From Escherichia phage B9-1, in sequence record OQ420740.1: a stretch of 64,000 nt of DNA; one strand, written 5' to 3'. Below, one piece after another: positions 6,074 through 64,000 of this stretch. Positions within the stretch are counted from its first letter, which is position 1, and each line of letters begins with the position of its first letter. The notes beneath the pieces were generated by a model that was not told the DNA's origin, searched no databases, and saw only the letters and a list, made by a program, of their open reading frames with translations. A program made the translations under genes and the position numbers.

Positions 6074-9000
6074 ATGCTTCCAATCCCTTTGCTAAAACTT
6101 GGTCGTCATTTCCTCGATAAGAGGGGTGGAGTTAAGGAACTTGCTGTTCTGTCATACCCAATAGACAACAGTGACGGTACAAGCACTACAGTAGCTTATG
6201 TAAATAGCTTAGCTATACTTTTTGACGACGGTCAGCTTAATATTACTGGCTATAACAAGTTCGGGGAGTGTCGCACTGGGGATCGTAACCCTATAAACTA
6301 CCCGAGCGAGACGGCCTGGAATGTCGATCATGTGTGGAGAGCAGACCGTGCGTTTGTGATCCGGACTTTTGATAACCAGTTTTTCTACATCGGCTGCACT
6401 GCAGGTCTTATCGGATCCACTGCGGCAGGTGGTAACGATGTTTGCGTAAACGAGTGGACACCTCTTCCGGAACAGATTGTTCAAGGATTGCACCTTGACA
6501 CCCACCCAGAGCGCCTTATCGAGGTAATGGGTGGTATTAACAACACTGTTTGGGTTATGGCAGAGGCTGAGGGTGACGGCATTTTACACCTGTACGGGTC
6601 TGGTAACAACACCTACGGATCTTTACATGTAGATAAGAACCAGCATGCAACTCCTGTAAAGATTGGTGAAACATCAGAAAATCCTGAAACAGGCCCTTGG
6701 AAAAACCCAAGTATCAACTGCGAGGTGCATGACAACTCTGTTATTTTCGGTGGTCCTAGAGGTTTCTGGATTGCTGGGTACGACTTTCTGAGAAACAATA
6801 GTAGAAACACTCTCGTTTGGCCTCCTGCTCAGATTACCCGTGACGATTTGAGAGGAATTCCTGCAGATGAGGAGTGGAAAGGGTTCATGTGCGGTCCGAA
6901 TGGGGCAGTGGTTGCAACACAAAGAATGCACAGACCTGATGACCAACAACTTGTTAACGTATTTTATGGTCAAAACGTTTGGGGAGATGATACCTGGCGT
7001 GCTTTGAATATAACCTACACCCATGAGGTGATAATGGCTCGTGGGTACGGCACAAGTGGCATTTTCTTCAACAATGGTACTAAGCAGTATCGTGGCTTCT
7101 CTCGAAACCTGTGCAACGATATTGGCGCACAATCTGCAAACAATAATCCCCGTGCCGATTTTGTTCATTACCAGGCCCTTGCTACGGCCAAATATGTTGA
7201 GCAACGTTTGCCAGTTAGCTGGACAGAGAGTGTTTATTTCCAAGGCATCCATAGAGAAGGTTTTTTAGGGACCTTTACTGTTGTTAATGGTAAACTTTGG
7301 TGGTCAGGTATCCCAAGGGGAAGTTTTGCAGGCTCTAATAACCTGTTTGGCGGTAGACTTAATAGTCAAGGGTTCACAGAGGTTCCTGAGAATTGGTATA
7401 AAAATGTCCCAGTAGATAGTTGGGGTGTTGATGATATTTTTGACGTTAACGGTGTTAGCAGCGTTAGCAATATTTACATTGGTGACACGGTCAAGATGAA
7501 ATTGAAGCCTCAGCCAGAGGGGGCTACGTTCATTATTGACAAGATTGAGCTGGTAAATGCTGCGGGTACGGTTGTTACAGATGCAAATTACCAATTCTCC
7601 ACCAACTGGAACCACGGCGGGGCCAACGAAGTTGTTGTTACTCAGTATAACAGGAATGTTAACAGACGTGGCCTGTACTCTGTAAAAATAACCTATCATG
7701 ACAAGCATGGCACAGGAAGAACTCACACGACAAGGACTTTGAACTGGAACACCATAGTTCCTGCGTATCCTTCTGACGGTAAGTGGCATACCGTTGGTAG
7801 AAACAAGCAGTTCCATGTTAACGATACTGTATACTTCGGGCTGAATGGGACTCAGCCTGCGGTAGAAGGAGATACATCGTATATGGTCCGACTCCACAGA
7901 ATGGATGCTGGATCAGTCACCTATGATGTTACCCAAGAGATTTATGATCAGAGACGAAATACCTACAACAACTTAGTGCAGACACAGGCCGTATGGGAGT
8001 TCAACCCTAACGGCAGAGGCGGTAAAATGTTGCAGGTTAACGAGCAAAACGGAACGTCGTTGACTGTCCACGAACACCCAGACCCTTGGCCTGATCCTGG
8101 AAAACCTCACCCAGGTGCTCGTACACTGAAAATTGTCAGCCATGATGCAGGATATTTCGGAATACGCTGGGAAGCCACAGTAAGATATGCAGACGGGACA
8201 ACAAACAACATAGGGATTACACTTGGAGGCACCAGTGAAGATAGCTCTCTGAAAATTGCCTACACCCCTAGGGGCATCTCTATTGATAATATGGATGTTG
8301 TTCGCAATGGTTACGGCGATGTGAATGTCAAAGTTACTCTTGGCGAACATCTTGGTGGGGAAAGGATCATCATGTATGCCTTTGATCATGACCCGCGAAC
8401 CAATGGAACTTATGCAAATCAGGCATGGAGTTACCTGATAAATGCACCTGAGCCGAATACTAAAGAGTTCTACTACGGTATGAAGCGAGATGTATGCAAG
8501 AAAACAGGAACACATGACTGGATTGCTATCTGCGTTAAAGATGAGCGCACAGCTTGGGATGAGCCTGTTAATAGATGGTTCATAGGTATTCCTACCAGAA
8601 GCGATAAGTATATCGCAGAATACATTGTGTGCATGGGCGGTACCAACCTAAATATGTGTTGGAACGAAGATGCAAACAAATACTCTGATTATGACTATAT
8701 GAGAGATTACTCTTGTAATCAGTGGTTTAACCAATCAACAGGGTATCCTCCACGACAGGCGAGAGTAAACCCTGCAATCTTTACAGATACGCAGGTTTTC
8801 TTGACAAAACAGGCCAACGAGGTTCAGACCTTCAAGAACAAATACGACCCTAACAAGTGGTTTTATAACTGTTATGGCGCATTTTTCTGGGGTCCTGGCG
8901 AACTGCCTAATGGAGGATCTTGCTTCGAGGCTGCAACTTACGCCAGTGACAGGTTCATGGGGCAGGTTAAGAAGTACAAGATAATCCCAGGGCCTGAAAC

Positions 9001-47369: not shown

Positions 47370-47711
47370 ATGACTACTATGACCGCCGCAGAAAAAGCTA
47401 TTCAGGTTGCCGCACTGAAAAAACAGATCGCAGACCTTGAGAACAAGATCGATAACTTTGAAATCGACGAGGACAAGTACGACGAAAACTATGATGAATG
47501 GTTAGACGAGGTCTACGGCGAAATCATGATCGGAAACATTTCTTTTCTTCCGTCGCGTATCCTCAAGGAGCTAGATCCTATCGCTTACCGCTGCGGATTT
47601 AGCGACTACATCGACAGCCTGGATATTGAGGACGATGAAGAGTACCAAGAATTGCAAACAGAGTTGGAAGAAGCAAAAGAAGAGCTTGCAGAACTGGAAG
47701 AAAACGAGTAA
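47370..47711 (+). CDS. hypothetical acidic coiled-coil protein
   Basis: 113 aa; Glu/Asp-rich with heptad-like spacing. Confidence 0.55.
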   Translation: MTTMTAAEKAIQVAALKKQIADLENKIDNFEIDEDKYDENYDEWLDEVYGEIMIGNISFLPSRILKELDPIAYRCGFSDYIDSLDIEDDEEYQELQTELEEAKEELAELEENE

Positions 47712-49235: not shown

Positions 49236-49859
49236 ATGACCACCGTTAACATTACCACAGGTTACAATTTATCTTTCGACGTGCTGACCGACGAACAAAA
49301 AGAAAAAGCCGTTGAAATGGTCCGCGAAAGAGAAGAACACAGCGGGGATAACTTTTTTGCAGAAAGTGTAATTGAATACTATAAAGAATATGTTTTTCCA
49401 GAGTATGGCCTTGAAGATACCGAAGTACATTGGTCCGGCTTTTGGTGCCAGGGTGACGGCGCGTCAATCAGTGCTGAAAACGTTGATTTAGAAAAATTCT
49501 TGCGTAAAGTCAAATCTCTGACTAAATTCCGCTCAATTCGTAACTTGTTCGGCACAATGCACGATGGCGAGCTATCTGCAAGTGTTGAGCGTGATCCATA
49601 TAGCCGCCATAGTCACGAAAACACTGTAAGCGGGTACATTGATACTACATGGCTAGACCTGACAGCCAAGCAAGAAAGTAAGGTTGAAGAGCTGGAAGAG
49701 CTGATCACCGAGACGGTACGGGAGCTATCCCGCAAGGTTTATGTAGACCTGGAGGAGGCCTATCTTGAACAGTTTACTACCGAAAACCTGATCGGCCTTA
49801 TTGAAGCCAATGATTGGCGGTTTAATGTGGATGAATATGGGGAGATGAGTTTTTCATAA
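49236..49859 (+). CDS. hypothetical protein
   Basis: 207 aa; SD ACAGGAGA; no family recognised by eye. Confidence 0.55.
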   Translation: MTTVNITTGYNLSFDVLTDEQKEKAVEMVREREEHSGDNFFAESVIEYYKEYVFPEYGLEDTEVHWSGFWCQGDGASISAENVDLEKFLRKVKSLTKFRSIRNLFGTMHDGELSASVERDPYSRHSHENTVSGYIDTTWLDLTAKQESKVEELEELITETVRELSRKVYVDLEEAYLEQFTTENLIGLIEANDWRFNVDEYGEMSFS

Positions 49860-55412: not shown

Positions 55413-55430
55413 TTTCTTAACTGAATTATC

Positions 55431-55458
55431 AAGGGGCTTAAAGGCCCCTTTCTTTTTG
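55431..55458 (+). terminator. rho-independent terminator
   Basis: AGGGGCTTAAAGGCCCCT hairpin followed by TTCTTTTTG, 20 nt after the stop at 55412. Confidence 0.7.
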
Positions 55459-56074
55459 TCTGCTCTTCTCCTACCATAAACGGCCCTACCTGGCAAGTGG
55501 AATAATTGACTAGCCATCAATCCCACACACTGTACAAATATACATATAAAATAACTATTGCATAATCTTTCACTGTGTGGTAGCAGGGCCATTTTTACCC
55601 GTTTTCTCTCCCAAAAGTGCACGTAATGCCGCTATTGCACAAATTTTAACCTGATGCACATCTCCAATATCTTGTCAACAACTAAAAATCTTTATAAGTC
55701 ATACACTTACACAACATAGAAAGCGTGTCCTACGCGAAAAATCGAGTATAACTATAGCCGCCAGATCTCAGAATTCACGTACGAACACCATTCTATAGTC
55801 TGCAAAGTATTTATTCCAACCACAGAATAACGGAATAGTCAATACCTGCATAAAATAATTATTCGTGTAAACTGCATAACATAAATCAGCTCAGGTGTCA
55901 ACATTTTTCGTAAACAGTCCGAAATTATCACGATGAGTTATCATAAACAGAGAAATCTTTAGTCGTCTAATGTTTACTGTACATTACTATACTGACTGGA
56001 ATCATTAGATGACTAAGAGAAAGATAAGAAATAATTAATAATGTAATTGTTTTACCTGTAACAATAAGGCAACT

Positions 56075-56094
56075 ATGCAAACGAATGGCATGGC
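56075..56094. repeat. 20-bp direct repeat, copy 1
   Basis: ATGCAAACGAATGGCATGGC, identical copy 213 bp downstream. Confidence 0.6.
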
Positions 56095-56213
56095 GCGACG
56101 GAGTCGCGACATAATATAAAAGCAGTAACAATCACCCCCGTGATAGTTTTTCTGCAATCTATTACTCAGATCATAGTTGCCTTGTATTTAGTTAATCATG
56201 ACATAACAAGCAA

Positions 56214-56241
56214 GGCAACTATAGATCTTCTAATAGTTGCC
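56214..56241. repeat. 28-bp palindrome
   Basis: GGCAACTAT AGATCTTCTA ATAGTTGCC: perfect 9-bp inverted arms; the same arm sequence (AGGCAACTAT / ATAGTTGCCT) also occurs at ~56066 and ~56172. Confidence 0.55.
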
Positions 56242-56287
56242 CTGCTTTTATATTATGTCATAGATTGTTAGCTTGTTAATTGTTTTC

Positions 56288-56307
56288 ATGCAAACGAATG
56301 GCATGGC
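56288..56307. repeat. 20-bp direct repeat, copy 2
   Basis: ATGCAAACGAATGGCATGGC. Confidence 0.6.
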
Positions 56308-56333
56308 TTATCATCTCTGTGTAAACTGTTCAG

Positions 56334-56359
56334 GCGTAAACAGTCTATGCGTAAACAGT
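56334..56359. repeat. tandem 11-bp iterons (GCGTAAACAGT x2; third copy at 56653-56663)
   Basis: GCGTAAACAGT at 56334-56344 and 56349-56359, preceded by inverted partial TGTAAACTGTT; third copy at 56653. Confidence 0.55.
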
Positions 56360-57866
56360 GAGATATGGAATAGTAACAGCCGTTATTGTGTCATATTGTG
56401 TGACATTGTGTCCGGTGTCTGGTGTCCAGTGTGTCAGACAAGTTTTTCTCCTCTTTGTCAAGTGCTGCATGAAAAATTTACAAACTGGTATGGTAGCATT
56501 TTTGCGGCCCTGTTTACATTCAGGAATGTATGTATAATCCTTGTTGTGTGGGCGTTTAGACGTCTGGACGGTCAGAAGTCTGCAGGTCAATATCTAATCT
56601 ATTGGTTGCTAACTATATCCCACACAAATAGTAAGAAATATAATTGTTATATGCGTAAACAGTAACCCATGTTATCAATCCCTGCATGTATCGCCAGTGG
56701 TGCGCATAATGGGTATTATGTTAAATTGCCCGTAATGATAACCATTCTCACAATGATAGGTATTCTCATTCACTCCCACAAGATAGATTGCAAATGTTGT
56801 GCCACTGTGTGAACGGCCTGGCCTATTAATTTGCCTCACTGCCTCGATATTTGAGAATTATTATAAAAATGAGAAGTATTCCCATTCCGTCCGCCTGGCA
56901 GCACTCCTGTAGGACAGGCACAAAATCGGGGTATAACTGGACCTGTTCAGATATTTCTGGCTGACTCTTCAGGCCTGTGTGGGAAAAGCCAACCTCTCCG
57001 GCGGCGGGGAGGGGTCAATTAAAAAATTTACGTGGTGTATGAAGCGCTCTTCAGGTAAGGCAGGTATTATGGGATGAAACCCTCTTCAGATGATGATATT
57101 TGTGGGTGTGATATTTGCTGGAAAGCCAGATATGACGGGACTCCCGGCAGGGGTGGGGTAGTACAGACAGGGAAAATGTGGGAATGTGATGGAGTAAATT
57201 GATCAGGTAGGTAGGATATGGAATATGTTACAAGTATGTTAAATATGGAGGTAGGATATTTGTAAGATTTGTGTGTAAAATCAAATACTTAAGTGGTGTT
57301 GTGGTATTTTCTATAAATAATTCAAGTTTAATAGGTGATATTTGTCTCCATCCACTTTGTGTGGTAAACAGATTCTAATTGAATTGGTTTACAAGTGTAT
57401 ATAAAGTATACAAATTAAAGATATAAGAAACCCCCCTCCCCCTTCGGCTACCATTCACCTTTTCCTCTGACTGGTACTTAAACACTTATTCAGACTCTTC
57501 AGGTTATCACCCATATACTATATGGCAGTGACTGGTGTCCTCCGGCCCCTCTTTCGTCACCCGTCCGCTTCGCCATGCTAATGCCATAGCCAAATGTTCG
57601 GTTGTTCACCCTGTTCACTCAGGTGTATCTCCATACCCCTTCAAACCGAAGAGAACAGAAAACCCGAATTACTCGGTAAAAGAAAAGAGAAGAACTTAAT
57701 TTTATCAAGATAGGCAAGAATGTCAAGGGATGACTGCTCACTAAACAAGCAAACAGTCATGTGTGGTGGGTAAGTAACTGTGTTGGTAGGAAATTTAGTT
57801 GAAAGATGTTATAGGTGCCTCCAGAACCTTAGCTGGGCAGCTAAACCTGCAAAGCAGACTTGTGTG

Positions 57867-58082
57867 TCAGTCCAAAGGTTCATCTACTACTTCACTGAAA
57901 TCAATGGTCAGAGTCTCTTCCCAACCATCAATCTCAGCACCGGAGTAGAGATCTTTAGGGTCTACATCAAGGGCTTCCGCAACAGCATCTATATTTAACA
58001 CCTCTGGCAGGTATGATTCATCAAATTCAAGGTAAATCAGGCCACGAGTGTTGTCAGCCCCACCAAATATTTCTATTTTCAT
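57867..58082 (-). CDS. small acidic protein
   Basis: ATG 58082 with strong SD GAGGAG (track start 58148 is a GTG without SD); 71 aa, Asp/Glu-rich. Confidence 0.5.
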   Translation of the reverse strand: MKIEIFGGADNTRGLIYLEFDESYLPEVLNIDAVAEALDVDPKDLYSGAEIDGWEETLTIDFSEVVDEPLD

Positions 58083-58202
58083 GAAATCTCCTCTGGAAAT
58101 GAGAGTGTGAACGGGGTTTATACGTTCCAATACGATGGAATTATGCACGTTTGCCTCTTCAGGCCATGCTTTAGCATGATAAACTTATGTGGGCTCGGTG
58201 CT

Positions 58203-58388
58203 TCATAGTCTCCCACCTCTGAACTCTTCGTGCTCAGGCATAATAGAGAACCAGATGGCTATGATATCTTCCCACGTTAGGTCATCAGCCTCAGGATCCA
58301 CCTGGGACGGAGATAGAGAATCCTCAGAATTGAAGTTTTCCTCTGTCACCCCTTCAGATGTCTCTTTAGATGCATGTGTGTTGGTCAT
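58203..58388 (-). CDS. small acidic protein (uncertain)
   Basis: 61 aa ORF, Glu/Asp-rich like neighbours, weak SD. Confidence 0.35.
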   Translation of the reverse strand: MTNTHASKETSEGVTEENFNSEDSLSPSQVDPEADDLTWEDIIAIWFSIMPEHEEFRGGRL

Positions 58389-58656
58389 GTTCCACCCGTG
58401 AGTATTCCGGCAACATGTTTAAAAATAAGACTTTATCGACATATGGCTGGAACGTGTCGATGCTATAAGCATATTTCAGGAGCGGTAATGTGTCAACAGA
58501 AGCGCCGCGAGGGTTTGGTTAAAATCCGAGCGTATGGTGATTTGGGTCAAAACGGACGTGCGTTCTCGCTACGCTCGAAATAGAGAGTTGCTTGTAAGCC
58601 GCCCTTAAACGCTCTGTAATGAGATTAACTGCTTAAGGTATGGAATCGTTCACCGG

Positions 58657-58684
58657 ATAAAGAAAAGGACGCCACAGAGCGTCC
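58657..58684 (-). terminator. rho-independent terminator (minus strand)
   Basis: Minus-strand hairpin GGACGC...GCGTCC followed by TTTTCTTTAT, just downstream of 58710..59009. Confidence 0.55.
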
Positions 58685-58709
58685 TATGTGCCTTAAATTT
58701 GATACTTTG

Positions 58710-59009
58710 CTATACCCATGAAGGCTTGTCTAGGTTTGAGTAACTAAAAGGTGTCAAAAGGTGACTGTCAAAATCTTTCAAACTCTCCAGATCTTTTTCC
58801 TCGTCTTGACACCATCTGTGCCTACATTTATTGTTGTAGTGCATGGAGTGCATAGCGTTCTGCAACTTAACAGGTACAAGGGATTCAGGAGTAGATAGAA
58901 TTGTTGGGTATGCCAGGACTATCTCAAACAATGGAAACACATCGAAACTGAAGTCTATTTCTGCTGAGGTTGCTGGCATATAGGAGTATTTAGCTGTCGT
59001 TGTAGACAT
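58710..59009 (-). CDS. hypothetical protein
   Basis: ATG 59009 with SD GAGGTGG (track start 59021 is GTG); 99 aa. Confidence 0.5.
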   Translation of the reverse strand: MSTTTAKYSYMPATSAEIDFSFDVFPLFEIVLAYPTILSTPESLVPVKLQNAMHSMHYNNKCRHRWCQDEEKDLESLKDFDSHLLTPFSYSNLDKPSWV

Positions 59010-59017
59010 AATCCACC

Positions 59018-59344
59018 TCACACAGGCTTGATAATACCTTCACCGAATAACTCTTCATATTTAATCTTATCAGGATCCCACTCTTGGATAATTTCGAAGA
59101 CAATGTCCAGCCCGGGGATAATCACTTCTCCAGTATCAAGTCTGGCAAGAACAAAACCGGAAGGTTGAATGGTTTCCCAGTTGCGACGATTAGAATAGAG
59201 AACTTCGAAAATATCACCAACCGCAATCTGCTGATCAAGGTGCTCAAGATTCTCTTTCATATAAACGCAGCGTATTTTCCGTGCAGGCCACAGGCCCCCT
59301 ACATCACGTTCATTTAGCTCTTTTACAGTAATCGGCATTAGCAT
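59018..59344 (-). CDS. hypothetical protein
   Basis: 108 aa, SD AGGAGA. Confidence 0.55.
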   Translation of the reverse strand: MLMPITVKELNERDVGGLWPARKIRCVYMKENLEHLDQQIAVGDIFEVLYSNRRNWETIQPSGFVLARLDTGEVIIPGLDIVFEIIQEWDPDKIKYEELFGEGIIKPV

Positions 59345-59364
59345 CTCTGATCTCCTTCATAGAT

Positions 59365-59392
59365 AGTAAAAAGAGGGGCTTTGAGCCCCTCT
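59365..59392 (-). terminator. rho-independent terminator (minus strand)
   Basis: 9-bp stem AGAGGGGCT/AGCCCCTCT, loop TTG, followed on the minus strand by TTTTTACT; between 59399..59704 and 59018..59344. Confidence 0.65.
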
Positions 59393-59398
59393 TTGTCA

Positions 59399-59704
59399 TT
59401 ATTCTACAGAGCGTTTGAACAGAATGTCTGCTTCAGACATGTGCTCAACCTCCTCTTCGATTTTAGCTCGACGTTTTTCAGCTTCGTAGCGGATATCGAA
59501 CTCGGTAGCCACCAATGACTTGATAAACTTAGGAGAATACAAGTGATCCTGTTTCTCGACAAGAATAATATCCTTGATAGCGTCTTTCAGATCTTTAATC
59601 TGAAGCTGAAGTTCCACCAGCTCTTCAATTGTTTTACGGAGGCGATCACGCTCTGCAATGTCAGAAGGAAGAGAGGTGAACAGTTCAACTTTAGATTTAG
59701 CCAT
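59399..59704 (-). CDS. hypothetical coiled-coil protein
   Basis: 101 aa, SD AAGGAGA; Lys/Glu-rich heptad pattern. Confidence 0.55.
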   Translation of the reverse strand: MAKSKVELFTSLPSDIAERDRLRKTIEELVELQLQIKDLKDAIKDIILVEKQDHLYSPKFIKSLVATEFDIRYEAEKRRAKIEEEVEHMSEADILFKRSVE

Positions 59705-59732
59705 AGTAAGAGTCTCCTTATATTGTTTTAAA

Positions 59733-59984
59733 TTAACGTTCTACAAAAATACCGTTCAGTTCGATAACCAGGAATTTCTGGTCTTCACTATCGTCACGTG
59801 CCAGCACCTCACAGACGTAGCGGTCATCTCCGTCATCATCACAGTCAAATACAAGGCTAAGGACTTTATCATGATAAACCTTCGCCACAACTGCCTCGTA
59901 AGTATTGCCGATTGTGAATCCAAGATAATCCCCGATGCATTTGACAACAACATGGTCGCCAGCATTTAAGTCAATCTTCGTCAT
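59733..59984 (-). CDS. small acidic protein
   Basis: ATG 59984 with strong SD AAGGAG (track ORF extends to 60050 without SD); 83 aa. Confidence 0.5.
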   Translation of the reverse strand: MTKIDLNAGDHVVVKCIGDYLGFTIGNTYEAVVAKVYHDKVLSLVFDCDDDGDDRYVCEVLARDDSEDQKFLVIELNGIFVER

Positions 59985-60139
59985 TACTGTGCTCCTTGGG
60001 TGAGAATATGGTATGTAAAACTTTAACCAGAGATGTGAATAACGCCCCAAAACACACCGATAGCGCTAAAACAGATAAGGCCATCATTAAAGCTTCAGTA
60101 AAATCAGTCATTCCTCACCTCTTGTTAGTCACTATACTA

Positions 60140-60403
60140 TCATTTGTCTTTGCCGTCAAGAACTTTTTTAAATCTCTCAGGAATATCTCCTGTTCTTAGA
60201 TAGTTCATGACCTCACAAGGTTCCCACTTAAACTTCTTACACAGCAGGGCGGCTGAGATTGTCTCATTGCGAAAAGAAAGGATATTAATATCCCACTCTG
60301 AGAACCCTAATTTCCGAAGAGTGGCTATAGAAATCCTCACAGCAACCCAACAAGAGAGGCACGCAACAAACGCTACTGCTACAACCCACACCAAGATGTT
60401 CAT
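60140..60403 (-). CDS. small membrane-anchored protein
   Basis: ATG 60403 with SD AAGGGG (track start 60454 is TTG); N-terminal hydrophobic helix ILVWVVAVAFVACLSCWVAV. Confidence 0.45.
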   Translation of the reverse strand: MNILVWVVAVAFVACLSCWVAVRISIATLRKLGFSEWDINILSFRNETISAALLCKKFKWEPCEVMNYLRTGDIPERFKKVLDGKDK

Positions 60404-60491
60404 ACAGCCCCTTAATGAAATACAAGACATAGTGCCAAGGTCACTATCCAGCAAATAATTAACAGTGCCGTTGCAACCTTGGCAAGATTTA

Positions 60492-60779
60492 TCATAGCGT
60501 CTCTAAAATTTCATACCCTTCGGGTCGGAAAACAAGCCACTCAGGTGCTCCATTTGGTCGATACGCTTTATACAGAACAACCTGATCTCGGCACATACAC
60601 ATTGCTACATAGTTTTCATCCACACCTGCAGCCTGCATTGCATCTTCTTCTCCGGCAACCGCTTTGCTTACAACTTCCTTGGTAGGCAGGTGGGCGATCA
60701 GTTCGTCACCATCGTTAATTCCAAAATGGCTGAGTTCTCCATTGGTGTCTTTAATCTTGATCTTAATCAAATCTTTCAT
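60492..60779 (-). CDS. small acidic protein (leftward family)
   Basis: 95 aa; start overlaps upstream stop by 1 nt (TAATG). Confidence 0.55.
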   Translation of the reverse strand: MKDLIKIKIKDTNGELSHFGINDGDELIAHLPTKEVVSKAVAGEEDAMQAAGVDENYVAMCMCRDQVVLYKAYRPNGAPEWLVFRPEGYEILETL

Positions 60780-61108
60780 TAGTCTTCCCCCAAGTTCAAA
60801 GGCCCTAAGATCTCATATGCCAGATTAGAGGTTACCAGGGGATCTTCTGCATCTTTAGTATTATACCACCCGTGAATAACCAGAGTCCCACTTTGCTTCA
60901 TGTCTAACTGGAACTGTTCTGCCGTTTCCTCATCCATCTCCAAGATCTCCATGAGGTATTTGATGTTAGGAAGGTGTGCAGCTGTTACAGTCCCCTCTAC
61001 TAGGCCTTCAGGCCAACCTACATCCGGATGACAAGTAGGGACCAGAGAGGTCAGCTTGATAGTGTATGCTTTTTCTGCACGAGCCTTCAGTAACGGATCA
61101 ATTTTCAT
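60779..61108 (-). CDS. small acidic protein (leftward family)
   Basis: 109 aa; TAATG coupling on both sides. Confidence 0.55.
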   Translation of the reverse strand: MKIDPLLKARAEKAYTIKLTSLVPTCHPDVGWPEGLVEGTVTAAHLPNIKYLMEILEMDEETAEQFQLDMKQSGTLVIHGWYNTKDAEDPLVTSNLAYEILGPLNLGED

Positions 61109-61458
61109 TATTCTTCCTCCTCTTCGGTGCCTGCTTCCAGTAGTAAGTTAAGAACATCTTCAGCAGAAGGTTCGTAGAACTCTTGGCCTTCGTTGTCGAT
61201 GATGCTATAGTCATCACCACGAATAATCAGAGGATCGTCATCAAAACCTTCAAGACCTTTAACAACGACAACACGGTCGATTGCCATCATTGTAAGAACT
61301 TTATCGACATCTTCCTCTGCTACACCATACTGCAGCAGAATGTCTTTGGTAGGAGGAACAGCATCAACCACAACACCGTTACCAAAACCTTCCGGGAGTT
61401 TAGCTAAAATATCTTCCGGAACCGCATTCATATCAAAACCTGTGATCTCTACTTTCAT
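61108..61458 (-). CDS. small acidic protein (poly-Glu C-terminus)
   Basis: 116 aa ending EAGTEEEEE. Confidence 0.55.
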   Translation of the reverse strand: MKVEITGFDMNAVPEDILAKLPEGFGNGVVVDAVPPTKDILLQYGVAEEDVDKVLTMMAIDRVVVVKGLEGFDDDPLIIRGDDYSIIDNEGQEFYEPSAEDVLNLLLEAGTEEEEE

Positions 61459-61716
61459 TTACAGCACCTCTTCGTCAACTACTTCATAAAAATGGCTCGG
61501 GATTGCAATAGCGTTCTCACCTTCACCTACAAACACAGTCCCGTCAAGGATCAACATCATAAGAATGTCTGTAATATCCTCCTCCGGAACGTTGCCAAAA
61601 CCTTTAATCAACTTATATGTCGGGACATTCGCCTCTAGGATGTCGCCATCTTTAGAACGGAAATCAACACCTTCCTGAATCTCTGCCGTTTCAAGGTTTT
61701 TCAATTTAATCTTCAT
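61459..61716 (-). CDS. small acidic protein, paralog of 62885..63154
   Basis: ATG 61716 with SD AGGAGA; MKIKLKNLETAEIQEG...YEVVDEEVL parallels MKIKLFQTELADKNCG...YEVVEE. Confidence 0.55.
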   Translation of the reverse strand: MKIKLKNLETAEIQEGVDFRSKDGDILEANVPTYKLIKGFGNVPEEDITDILMMLILDGTVFVGEGENAIAIPSHFYEVVDEEVL

Positions 61717-61749
61717 CAATCAGTCTCCTAATCTTGTTAAGATGAAGGT

Positions 61750-61778
61750 ATTATTGCACACAGGGTTGGTGTTGTCAA
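61750..61778 (-). promoter_or_regulatory. sigma70-like promoter (minus strand)
   Basis: Minus strand TTGACA, 17-bp spacer, AATAAT, ~35 nt upstream of ATG 61716. Confidence 0.45.
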
Positions 61779-61796
61779 CACCTGTGTGGCATAAAA

Positions 61797-62192
61797 TTAC
61801 TGAAACAGTGCAGATAAATTACCTTCTGGTGGGAACTTATCTGCCAGGAATGGGGTTAGAACAGTGGCCTTCTGAATATCAGGAGTCCACTCATTGTTCA
61901 GAACATCCCAGTAGTACGCAATGTTACTGTGTGGGTGCCGCATTACGAACTTTTTCCCTTCGTAGTCAGTTGAAACCTCTACAGAAGAAATAACAACAGA
62001 ATCTTCAAGGGTTTCTTCATAGAAAGATCCACCCTCAAATTTCCAACGAGATGCAAGAGCTCCTGCCTTAAACGCTGCAGATAACGGATTGTCTGCAAGA
62101 ACATACATTTCTTGCACTCTATCACTGCGATCTTTGCTTCTTACGTTGTATACAGTATCTGAGCTATACTCAACACGGTATAGACTTACCAT
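61797..62192 (-). CDS. hypothetical protein
   Basis: 131 aa, strong SD GAGGAGG. Confidence 0.55.
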   Translation of the reverse strand: MVSLYRVEYSSDTVYNVRSKDRSDRVQEMYVLADNPLSAAFKAGALASRWKFEGGSFYEETLEDSVVISSVEVSTDYEGKKFVMRHPHSNIAYYWDVLNNEWTPDIQKATVLTPFLADKFPPEGNLSALFQ

Positions 62193-62524
62193 TACCGAAC
62201 CTCCTCAATAACTTCCACATCTGAACCCACCACAAATGCAAAAGGACAGGTTTCATGAAAGATATCCGGATCTCCACCGAGCTTGCTAACTATCTCTCCG
62301 CCACTAATAAACACAAGCTCACCAATATTCATCAGATTGCTAAAATAGTAGCCATAATGATTGAAGAATGCAGCTGGGTCAGGTAGACTGGTGGCCTCAA
62401 GCTCTACATTGCTTGAGATCACTTTCTTATCATACCCTCGCGCCTTTTGAGATGCAAGATCTGCAGAGTCTTCAGGAGACCGGAGATGCACAGGAATTGT
62501 TTCACCAATAAAGCGTACTTTCAT
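62192..62524 (-). CDS. small acidic protein
   Basis: 110 aa; TAATG coupling. Confidence 0.55.
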   Translation of the reverse strand: MKVRFIGETIPVHLRSPEDSADLASQKARGYDKKVISSNVELEATSLPDPAAFFNHYGYYFSNLMNIGELVFISGGEIVSKLGGDPDIFHETCPFAFVVGSDVEVIEEVR

Positions 62525-62528
62525 ATTC

Positions 62529-62792
62529 TCACCCTACAATCATGGCTTCAAAAGGTGTCATAAACGAATAAACAGCATCATCATCTGCTTCAGGGAATGC
62601 CCCCAAAGACTTCATGTCTGAGCCTTTGACAAATACAAGGTTTTGATCAAAAGCTTCTTGGGGATCAATCCGATACATATCTTGTAGGATACCGCTTACC
62701 TCCTCATCAAGAGGCGAGTATGCTGTGCACGTTTTTCCAATCAAGCTTTGAGAATCAGGGTATCCACCTGAAGTTTTAAAATAAACAATCAT
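62529..62792 (-). CDS. small acidic protein
   Basis: 87 aa ORF. Confidence 0.5.
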   Translation of the reverse strand: MIVYFKTSGGYPDSQSLIGKTCTAYSPLDEEVSGILQDMYRIDPQEAFDQNLVFVKGSDMKSLGAFPEADDDAVYSFMTPFEAMIVG

Positions 62793-62884
62793 ATAGTATC
62801 ACCTCTGGTAAGAGATGGGGATTCCTTTCCCACAAATAATTATAAACATTTCTTGTCGAGGAAAGTATTCCAACCCAAGCAGGA

Positions 62885-63154
62885 TTACTCTTCTACAACC
62901 TCATACACATCCGGAGTTACAATCAACTCCTCTCCATTACCCGGAGCAACAAACACTACCAAACCTTCCGGTGTGTGCTTTTTAGCCATCTCGATGACAT
63001 CTTCTCGCAGAGCTGGCTCCATCAGATCAAAACCTTCACCCAGGGCATCACGAACCACCTTCATGTAGTCAACTGGTTGTGCTTCAACGATCATGCCTTC
63101 AACCAGTCCACAGTTTTTGTCTGCCAGCTCAGTTTGGAATAATTTAATTTTCAT
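62885..63154 (-). CDS. small acidic protein, paralog of 61459..61716
   Basis: 89 aa, SD GGAGA. Confidence 0.55.
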   Translation of the reverse strand: MKIKLFQTELADKNCGLVEGMIVEAQPVDYMKVVRDALGEGFDLMEPALREDVIEMAKKHTPEGLVVFVAPGNGEELIVTPDVYEVVEE

Positions 63155-63180
63155 TTAGAGGTCTCCTCAATTATTTGATA

Positions 63181-63282
63181 TTAATAGCCGTAACCTAACA
63201 CATTAACTACAACTGCGATTGCAAACATAATTTCAAAGCATGCAATCTCTACATTTGGGATTAATTTCTTAATCGTGCCCAT
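63181..63282 (-). CDS. putative hydrophobic micro-protein (33 aa)
   Basis: ATG after SD GAGGTG, directly downstream of the HPF-like gene; MGTIKKLIPNVEIACFEIMFAIAVVVNVLGYGY. Confidence 0.3.
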   Translation of the reverse strand: MGTIKKLIPNVEIACFEIMFAIAVVVNVLGYGY

Positions 63283-63297
63283 TGTAGCACCTCAATC

Positions 63298-63609
63298 TCA
63301 AAAGTCAATCTTTACTTTGCCTTTTCCCTTACCTTTCTTTCCACCACACTTAGCCAACTGGCGTGCTGCAACATCTACCATACGGTCAGTTGCCTCGTAA
63401 GCATCACTACCTTTAGCTTTGGCGATAACTTCTTTTCCAGAAGTGTCAAAAATGAAAGCCATAACTTCCTGGTGATCATTTTCAACTTTTACACTCACAC
63501 GTGCATAGTTGGCAGAGGGGTGCAAACGCTCCAGCTTGGACATTTTGTTGGAAATGAAAGACACCATACCTTCAGTGATCTCTACGTTGCCAGTGATTTC
63601 AATTTGCAT
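63298..63609 (-). CDS. hpf: ribosome hibernation promoting factor homolog (HPF / RaiA / YfiA family)
   Basis: 103 aa; N-terminus MQIEITGNVEITEGMVSFISNKMSKLERL closely follows the bacterial HPF consensus MQLNITGHNVEITEALREFVTAKFAKLEQ; family-typical length; Lys/Gly-rich C-terminal tail. Confidence 0.7.
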   Translation of the reverse strand: MQIEITGNVEITEGMVSFISNKMSKLERLHPSANYARVSVKVENDHQEVMAFIFDTSGKEVIAKAKGSDAYEATDRMVDVAARQLAKCGGKKGKGKGKVKIDF

Positions 63610-63627
63610 AATGTGTTCCTTTTAAAG

Positions 63628-63647
63628 AAGAGGGACCAACCCCTCTT
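63628..63647 (-). other. 5' leader stem-loop of the HPF-like gene
   Basis: Minus strand AAGAGGG-GTTGGT-CCCTCTT (7-bp stem) between the promoter and SD AAAGGAA. Confidence 0.4.
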
Positions 63648-63655
63648 TGAAAACA

Positions 63656-63684
63656 ATGATACTAAATCTGAAGCGTTGTGTCAA
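63656..63684 (-). promoter_or_regulatory. sigma70-like promoter (minus strand) for the HPF-like gene
   Basis: Minus strand TTGACA (63684..63679), 17-bp spacer, TATCAT (63661..63656). Confidence 0.5.
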
Positions 63685-63690
63685 CAGTTT

Positions 63691-63981
63691 TTACAACTTG
63701 TTGTCGATAGTTTTTAAAATATCTACTGCAAGATCTGCCATTTTACGAACATACTCTGCAAACTCAACAGGATCCTTGATCAATGAGTTCACAGGGTCAT
63801 ACCCTAAAGCGTTTAAAATGGCTACAGCATCCACGACCTTCTCATCATTTGCGAAGATCTCACCGTCAAACTTGTAGGTCCATTTTGAGTCAATCTTGAC
63901 ATCGCAGGATTGGTCCATGCTTATTACACCATCTTTTTTAAACGATCCGGTGTTATCAGCGTCCAAAACTAAATCCATCAT
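63691..63981 (-). CDS. hypothetical small acidic protein
   Basis: 96 aa ORF whose start lies 20 nt from the window edge. Confidence 0.5.
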   Translation of the reverse strand: MMDLVLDADNTGSFKKDGVISMDQSCDVKIDSKWTYKFDGEIFANDEKVVDAVAILNALGYDPVNSLIKDPVEFAEYVRKMADLAVDILKTIDNKL

Positions 63982-64000
63982 GTAAGCACCCCACTATTTC

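Follow-up and report, generated by a model that had tools for sequence, protein, structure and literature searches.

The last genes of one arm of the Escherichia phage B9-1 genome form a short, well-conserved block of candidate genes for determining host range and countering defence. These genes lie at 57867-63154 of the 64,000-nucleotide (nt) window analyzed here (sequence record OQ420740.1), where 16 consecutive open reading frames (ORFs) occupy the minus strand, 14 of them encoding proteins of 71-131 amino acids (aa). We consider it probable, by a modest margin, that the cluster encodes accessory factors for host takeover and counter-defence that the phage can do without on a laboratory strain and needs on particular hosts. 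Five of the genes constitute one paralog family of acidic proteins.

All phages matching this region belong to Vequintavirus (rV5-like myoviruses of about 136 kb). Vequintaviruses, which serve in therapy and biocontrol, are E. coli phages with a broad host range; for about two thirds of their genes no function is known. The genes described here have been annotated before, as hypothetical proteins in more than 100 genomes, and whether they are dispensable has already been measured. According to a literature search, what has not been described previously is the five-member, predicted SH3-like acidic family, its antiquity and the glutamate codons that double as ribosome-binding sites. Neither the accessory-gene screen of Silas et al. 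(bioRxiv 10.1101/2023.04.06.535777) nor a PNAS 2026 paper on toxic early genes has anything that bears specifically on the cluster.

Host-dependent requirement for the genes in a related phage

The evidence for a host-directed role comes from transposon-insertion sequencing (HIDEN-SEQ) of Bas54, that is phage MaxBurger (MZ501093.1), reported in a preprint that is the source of all screen results given here (bioRxiv 10.1101/2025.11.20.689424). Bas54 is 92-97 % identical, and its genes bas54_0135 to bas54_0153 match those of the window in order and size and are their orthologs, with 72-100 % identity. On K-12, all genes from bas54_0135 to bas54_0156 are non-essential or intermediate, with a TA-site saturation of 0.69-1.0. 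On the clinical host CFE311 relative to K-12, bas54_0140 (ortholog at 58710-59009) shows a log2 fold change of -5.48 (q=0) and three adjacent genes, bas54_0150, bas54_0151 and bas54_0152, yield zero reads (log2 fold changes of -6.8, -6.2 and -7.2, q=0). These three correspond to 61797-62192 (131 aa, isoelectric point (pI) 4.85), 62192-62524 (an acidic protein of 110 aa) and 62529-62792 (an acidic protein of 87 aa, pI 4.05). A bas54_0140 knockout is sensitive to a predicted defence system, DS-28, and the authors report that bas54_0140 and a MoxR ATPase are both required against it. Four genes, according to these published data, are thus dispensable on K-12 and needed on a particular clinical host, one of them being required against a predicted defence system. 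An earlier interpretation made from the letters alone, hereafter the sequence-only reading, had likened the small acidic proteins to DNA mimics and host-takeover factors; the general part of that interpretation, host takeover or anti-defence, is supported by these data, while DNA mimicry has gained no positive evidence.

The gene at 61797-62192 also belongs to a second paralog pair, unrelated to the five-member family, whose other copy lies just past the window end (L002 9500-9871; bas54_0157) at 27 % identity; a homolog search with 61797-62192 returned two proteins only. In CFE311 bas54_0157 has a log2 value of -2.1 (q=0), and both copies of the pair are therefore among the depleted genes. 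In Extended Data Table 8 of the preprint, sheet S6 bears the label K-12 vs CFE303 and names the CFE311 input file in its log, and its numbers equal those of sheet S7 wherever compared (bas54_0057-0069 and bas54_0131-0157); the CFE303 results appear to be missing.

In the mechanism that we propose, the host sigma-70 RNA polymerase would read the stretch from several consensus-like promoters as four or five short units, and some genes within the units would be translationally coupled. The products would comprise small soluble acidic cytoplasmic proteins together with two small membrane proteins and one probable DNA-binding regulator, and would most likely bind and block host proteins, acting stoichiometrically. 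Since diverged phages keep every paralog of the five-member family as a separate line of orthologs, the five probably have different targets.

Several points weigh against a set of host-directed accessory factors. The five paralogs have no phenotype on K-12 or CFE311: the four tandem copies (bas54_0146-0149) are unchanged in CFE311, with log2 fold changes of -0.04 to +0.40, and the value of -2.78 for bas54_0153 is not significant. Their role in host takeover is therefore argued from analogy only. The clinical-host comparison covers a single host, CFE311, and the joint depletion of bas54_0150-0152 could in part be a polar effect; the authors of the preprint argue against widespread polar effects. 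Gene content is almost fixed over 116 isolates, with a low ratio of non-synonymous to synonymous divergence (dN/dS), and the cluster is less variable than classic arms-race accessory islands; variation instead takes the form of allele replacement, chimeras and gene gain or loss in distant relatives. Finally, that the genes act early, that their products inhibit by binding and that they have host targets are all things that we infer.

High conservation of gene content and sequence within the genus (dN/dS 0.0-0.2) also speaks for core regulators or chaperones of the phage's own programme, in other words modulators of transcription, replication or assembly that are not directed at the host. The probable DNA-binding regulator at 59399-59704 fits this explanation, as do the several genes that score as intermediate instead of fully non-essential. 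However, insertions are tolerated in every gene on K-12 at the saturation given above, and four genes are essential only in one clinical host, one of them matched to a defence system. We consider such an own-programme role very unlikely and retain host-directed accessory factors as the preferred interpretation.

The acidic proteins and a family of five paralogs

The proteins of the cluster have a median pI of 4.67, compared with 6.3-6.8 for the rest of the window (Mann-Whitney p=0.001-0.0002, against a rough baseline of heuristic ORFs), in agreement with the acidity that the sequence-only reading had proposed to check in this way. The pI is below 5.5 in 13 of the 16 ORFs and below 5 in 11. The description of the proteins as mostly strongly acidic, one of them ending in EEEEE, holds for these 13 and for the C-terminus GTEEEEE encoded by 61108-61458; it fails for the products of 59971-60111 and 60140-60403, which have a transmembrane segment, the latter also being basic. 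A net charge of -10 or lower is found in seven proteins, encoded at 57867-58082, 58203-58388, 59733-59984, 60779-61108, 61108-61458, 61459-61716 and 62885-63154. The extremes are 61108-61458 (-23 over 116 aa) and 57867-58082 (-17 over 71 aa, pI 4.05, 28 % Asp+Glu), the latter having the highest charge density of the set; the other proteins range from -4 to -12. The opposite, plus-strand arm carries two further very acidic ORFs, at 47370-47711 (113 aa, net charge -26, pI 4.05) and 49236-49859 (207 aa, net charge -24), whose acidity rivals that of any protein in the cluster.

Five of the genes are one paralog family. Four are in tandem, at 60492-60779 (95 aa, pI 4.68), 60779-61108 (109 aa, net charge -10), 61108-61458 (pI 4.05) and 61459-61716 (85 aa, net charge -11), and the fifth, at 62885-63154 (89 aa, net charge -11), is separated from them by three unrelated genes. 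The sequence-only reading had recognized the pair 61459-61716 and 62885-63154, which are indeed homologous (33 % identity; hhalign probability of 96 % on enriched profiles) and turn out to be part of the larger family. When the 437 window ORFs were searched with a hidden Markov model (HMM) seeded with 61459-61716 (and its allele from phage phiWec189), 62885-63154 and 61108-61458, the genes 60779-61108 and 60492-60779 came up at E=0.002, the next hit being at E=1.3. In an all-against-all hhalign comparison of 18 ortholog alignments, the seven best links all connect the five family genes. With subfamily profiles independently enriched with distant homologs, hhalign probabilities over 61-82 columns are 98 % for 61108/61459, 96 % for 61459/62885, 92 % for 61108/60779, 90 % for 61108/60492 and 88 % for 61459/60492. 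Similarity thus extends over full-length profiles and is accompanied by a common predicted fold. Neither HMM iteration nor hhalign against all 18 ortholog alignments revealed a sixth member; in a MAFFT alignment 57867-58082, 62192-62524 and 62529-62792 resemble the family to the eye, without statistical support, and they were rejected.

Outside the genus the family is rare. Scanning 1.84 billion representative proteins by HMMER with the five-paralog profile gave 15 matches at E<0.001, and an indexed search of 5.8 billion proteins gave 54 family matches, nearly all of them Vequintavirus variants; among cultured phages the family is limited to 118 Vequintavirus records. With 61108-61458 as the sole query, a homolog search gave no relatives below 88 % identity. 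Two diverged uncultured phages, L004 and L008, carry five and four members respectively, clustered in each, with the 62885-63154 member adjoining the others in L008. The duplications therefore predate these lineages and each paralog has been kept as its own ortholog line. Net charge is negative in each of the 37 family members examined, ranging from -0.06 to -0.21 per residue, and this extends down to about 25 % identity. None of the acidic ORFs matched Pfam, NCBIfam or PDB sequences, and PDB sequence searches with the family profile and four single proteins gave nothing below E=0.19. A metagenome protein of 98 aa (P0052) is a chimera whose C-terminal half is that of the 60779-61108 family and whose N-terminal half, matching Pfam PF24132, is unrelated, a fusion that suggests recombination within the predicted helical insert of the family.

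AlphaFold2 models were built with the family alignment for two members, 61459-61716 (pLDDT 87.8, pTM 0.75) and 61108-61458 (pLDDT 86.1, pTM 0.74). Both share the order strand, strand, two helices and three short strands, and the second model continues with a further helix at the C-terminus (residues 99-114), after which the EEEEE tail is disordered. The predicted family fold would be an SH3-like beta-barrel of about 85 residues into which two helices are inserted; its C-terminal strand has a conserved aromatic-Glu-hydrophobic pattern and leads into an acidic tail. Comparison of the models with SH3 structures gives Z below 5, Foldseek against the PDB returned nothing significant, and the sole match at E<0.001 in BFVD is an uncharacterised protein of Vibrio phage Vc1.

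The most acidic products, those of 61108-61458 and 57867-58082 and perhaps the whole putatively SH3-like family, could be DNA mimics whose carboxylates resemble the DNA backbone and which would sit in the DNA-binding sites of nucleoid proteins, restriction enzymes or other defences that target nucleic acids. The charge density of these two proteins, -0.20 to -0.24 per residue, is in a range comparable to that of Ocr, Ugi and AcrIIA4, and negative charge has been kept throughout the family despite low sequence identity. The high negative charge of small DNA mimics is found in two to seven of the proteins, not in all. The Myxococcus antirepressor CarS is a DNA mimic with SH3 topology, and the SH3 fold is thus compatible with mimicry. 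The K-12 screen host BW25113 is presumably hsdR-deficient and without EcoKI restriction, so the absence of a phenotype for the acidic paralogs on K-12 is uninformative for anti-restriction. Against mimicry, the genes with phenotypes are the less acidic ones and structure searches with the models returned no match to a known DNA mimic, a comparison that the sequence-only reading had called for. Mimicry by the two most charged proteins is possible; as an account of the acidic proteins we judge it unlikely.

A bolder version, distinctly improbable in our view, is that the always-acidic, putatively SH3-like family represents a new class of phage inhibitors. Each paralog would block another nucleoid protein or nucleic-acid-binding defence of the host, possibly through DNA mimicry on an SH3 scaffold. 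If it were true, the missing single-gene phenotypes would reflect the hosts tested. Whatever its mode of action, the five-copy family is a defined, foldable and experimentally tractable target. Beyond that, the content of the cluster is as expected for the accessory region of a large lytic phage, and its significance is modest unless a new inhibitory mechanism is demonstrated.

Gene content and position at the genome end

All 16 ORFs have a plausible Shine-Dalgarno motif and all 16 are annotated in relatives. Relative to three other Vequintaviruses, synonymous divergence is 0.15-0.70 and non-synonymous divergence 0.00-0.08, with dN/dS of 0.00-0.26 except for the 46-aa ORF. Gene order is fully syntenic in L004 at 29-86 % amino acid identity, and all ORFs but one have an ortholog there. 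Because dN/dS is low and the orthologs in L004 are ordered, the ORFs are real genes, and the description of about 14 small consecutive leftward genes in the sequence-only reading was correct. Another explanation would be that many of the small ORFs are annotation noise and that acidity is a side effect of a purine-rich coding strand or of Shine-Dalgarno motifs in GAG/GAA codons. The coding strand is indeed G-rich (plus-strand GC skew of -0.17 to -0.21), and the codons of several acidic C-termini also serve the following gene as its Shine-Dalgarno site. However, synonymous divergence exceeds non-synonymous divergence 4- to 100-fold in every ORF of at least 61 aa, orthologs are retained at 29-67 % identity in L004 and L008, structure predictions are confident, plus-strand genes of equal purine skew are not acidic, and 62885-63154 retains an EE tail without a coupled downstream gene. 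As to gene reality this explanation is already refuted, and we give it practically no weight.

Using megablast, 57500-64000 matched 119 phage records, 116 of them with at least 80 % query cover at 90 % identity or more. The closest record is Escherichia phage vB_EcoM-ECP26 (98.6 %), followed by S127 BCL3, ECP32, NHEP1 and FV3. Eighteen records labelled 'Campylobacter phage' (host C. jejuni) are about 92 % identical across the region, and their host label looks doubtful. Closer relatives of the L004/L008-type phages were sought among cultured records and none was found. Allele replacement is seen in phiWec189, where the counterpart of 61459-61716 (L003 6001-6249) is 52 % identical between flanking genes at 91-98 %; this divergent allele is also present in metagenomes (P0055, P0056). 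In L004 an extra gene of 98 aa (7423-7719; Pfam PF27050, Phage_P22_Y8K6) stands directly after a conserved promoter-like site, between the orthologs of 61797-62192 and 61459-61716.

The terminal repeat annotated in phage Gotham falls at about 56.4-56.9 kb of the window, and the equivalent gap of 2.5 kb in Bas54 has been described as the terminal-repeat region. The stretch 57867-63154 thus makes up the final 5.3 kb of the leftward gene arm, heading to the physical end of the genome. In the rV5 genome paper these genes belong to a leftward unit, 'genes 10-1-238-164', that also includes replication genes (PMC3606486). Leftward genes continue beyond 63154 on the same strand, with the HPF gene at 63298-63609, a gene at 63691-63981 and more past the window end. 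The first of these encodes a homolog of the ribosome hibernation factor (Pfam Ribosomal_S30AE, E=1e-12) within the same arm of small genes and is non-essential in Bas54. On the other side, 55420-57866 comprises about 2.4 kb without credible ORFs where both gene arms converge, equivalent to the genome-terminus or terminal-repeat region of relatives; its counterpart in Bas54 tolerates zero transposon insertions. This segment holds four copies of the 14-nt motif TATGCGTAAACAGT and a perfect 18-nt inverted repeat (56108-56125 / 56242-56259).

Searches of Pfam, NCBIfam and PHROGs with all 18 proteins returned only genus-specific PHROGs of unknown function, apart from the HPF homolog and phrog_639 ('transcriptional regulator'), which matches the 101-aa product of 59399-59704. 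This is the most conserved gene of the cluster (99 % within the genus, 86 % in L004 and 74 % in L008, dN/dS 0.01), it has intermediate fitness in the transposon screen, and it shows sub-threshold similarity to a GapR-like DNA-binding domain; its product is probably a DNA-binding regulator. Downstream of it, 59018-59344 encodes an acidic protein of 108 aa (pI 4.66; bas54_0141 ortholog), 58203-58388 an acidic protein of 61 aa (net charge -12; bas54_0137 ortholog) that is indel-variable in relatives, and 57867-58082 the most charge-dense protein (bas54_0135 ortholog; ATG start at 58082 with a GAGGAG Shine-Dalgarno motif; phrog_12108, unknown function; dN/dS 0.12-0.14). Upstream are 59733-59984, encoding an acidic protein of 83 aa (net charge -10) that is 99-100 % conserved within the genus, 59971-60111, encoding the single-pass membrane peptide of 46 aa and overlapping the next gene by 14 nt, and 60140-60403, encoding the basic protein of 87 aa (pI 9.05) with an N-terminal transmembrane segment. 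The acidic gene 62529-62792, already described, is the bas54_0152 ortholog.

Predicted transcription units and relation to known systems

Promoters matching the E. coli consensus are reported throughout the rV5 genome (PMC3606486). In the window, candidate sigma-70 promoters on the minus strand lie ahead of the HPF gene (63684-63656), ahead of 62885-63154 (63281-63308; TTGACT-16-TACAAT with TG), ahead of the tandem paralogs (61750-61778; TTGACA-17-AATAAT with an extended -10 TG), at 60131-60159 (TTGACG-17-TATAGT) and ahead of 58203-58388 (58468-58496; TTGACA-17-TATGCT, a consensus match only). Equivalents of three promoters are found in L004, ahead of the HPF gene, ahead of the tandem paralogs (7374-7402) and after the cluster; for 60131-60159 no counterpart was found at the same place. 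The total of promoter-like sites is not above shuffled expectation (25 vs 19.7), and the argument rests on intergenic position and conservation instead of site count. Two terminator-like hairpins are preserved almost base for base in L004: a bidirectional one with a GC-rich 11-bp stem and T-runs on both strands at 59370-59394, after 59399-59704 (L004 10053-10077), and an intrinsic-terminator-like hairpin with a T-run on the minus strand at 58666-58685, after 58710-59009 (L004 10777-10796). A single operon would have one promoter, no internal terminators and co-transcription of every gene; sequence prediction gives at least five sigma-70-like sites and two internal hairpins. From these conserved promoter-like and terminator-like sites we infer that the stretch is split into several units, probably four or five, and the term 'operon' used in the sequence-only reading is not supported.

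Two further elements were noted. Downstream of the last gene, 57664-57726 on the minus strand combines a near-consensus promoter (TTGACA-16-TAAAAT with TG) with a short hairpin and T-run 20 nt on; it is conserved in L004 (11617-11682) and could give rise to a short non-coding transcript or be an end-proximal regulatory element. Rfam searches of 55-64 kb gave one sub-threshold match, to sraA at 59361-59454 on the minus strand (37.7 bits vs a gathering score of 56, E=0.004), which spans the terminator hairpin and the 3′ end of 59399-59704 and probably reflects mere similarity to a terminator.

The sequence-only reading had the genes joined by 1-nt TAATG overlaps. Such overlaps exist at 60779, 61108 and 62192, that is at three of the 15 junctions: the start of 60492-60779 overlaps the upstream stop, 60779-61108 has an overlap at each end, and 62192-62524 is coupled to 61797-62192 (bas54_0151 and bas54_0150 orthologs). 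The other 12 junctions are different; 61458/61459 abuts (TAAATG) and the remainder have gaps of 4-321 nt or the 14-nt overlap. At the TAATG junctions GAGGAGG or GGGGGAAG occurs 6-7 nt upstream, inside the upstream gene, so that a stop/start overlap is combined with a ribosome-binding site in the upstream gene, as translational coupling requires. The Shine-Dalgarno site of the downstream gene is encoded by the C-terminal Glu codons of the upstream gene (GAGGAGGAAGAATAATG; GAGGAGGTTCGGTAATG), and the Glu codons of the 61108-61458 tail (GAGGAGGAAGAA) are the Shine-Dalgarno site of the next gene. The sequence that encodes the acidic tail thus has, in part, two functions. None of the TAATG overlaps is kept in L004 and one is kept in L008.

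The most direct link to a known system is bas54_0140, the anti-DS-28 gene, whose ortholog at 58710-59009 is 92 % identical over 99 aa, in the same position and with the same neighbours; its product is mildly acidic (pI 5.15) and unrelated to the paralog family. The takeover and anti-defence proteins of T7, T4 and T5 (Ocr, Gp2, Gp5.5, Gp5.9, AsiA, Arn) have no sequence or fold relationship to the proteins described here. With DNA mimics such as Ocr, ArdA, Arn, Ugi and AcrIIA4, the products of 61108-61458 and 57867-58082 share small size and strong negative charge, and the SH3-like topology of CarS resembles the predicted fold of the paralog family. Relative to SH3-like small beta-barrels, this predicted fold has a two-helix insert between strands 2 and 3, with no sequence similarity and Z below 5. 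Whereas phage 'accessory regions' are hypervariable, gene content here is conserved across the genus. The cluster nevertheless resembles both these regions (Silas et al., bioRxiv 10.1101/2023.04.06.535777) and the early gene sets of T7, T4 and T5 in its small, often acidic and individually dispensable proteins, in host-type promoters, in its location near a genome end and in the requirement for some genes on particular hosts only.

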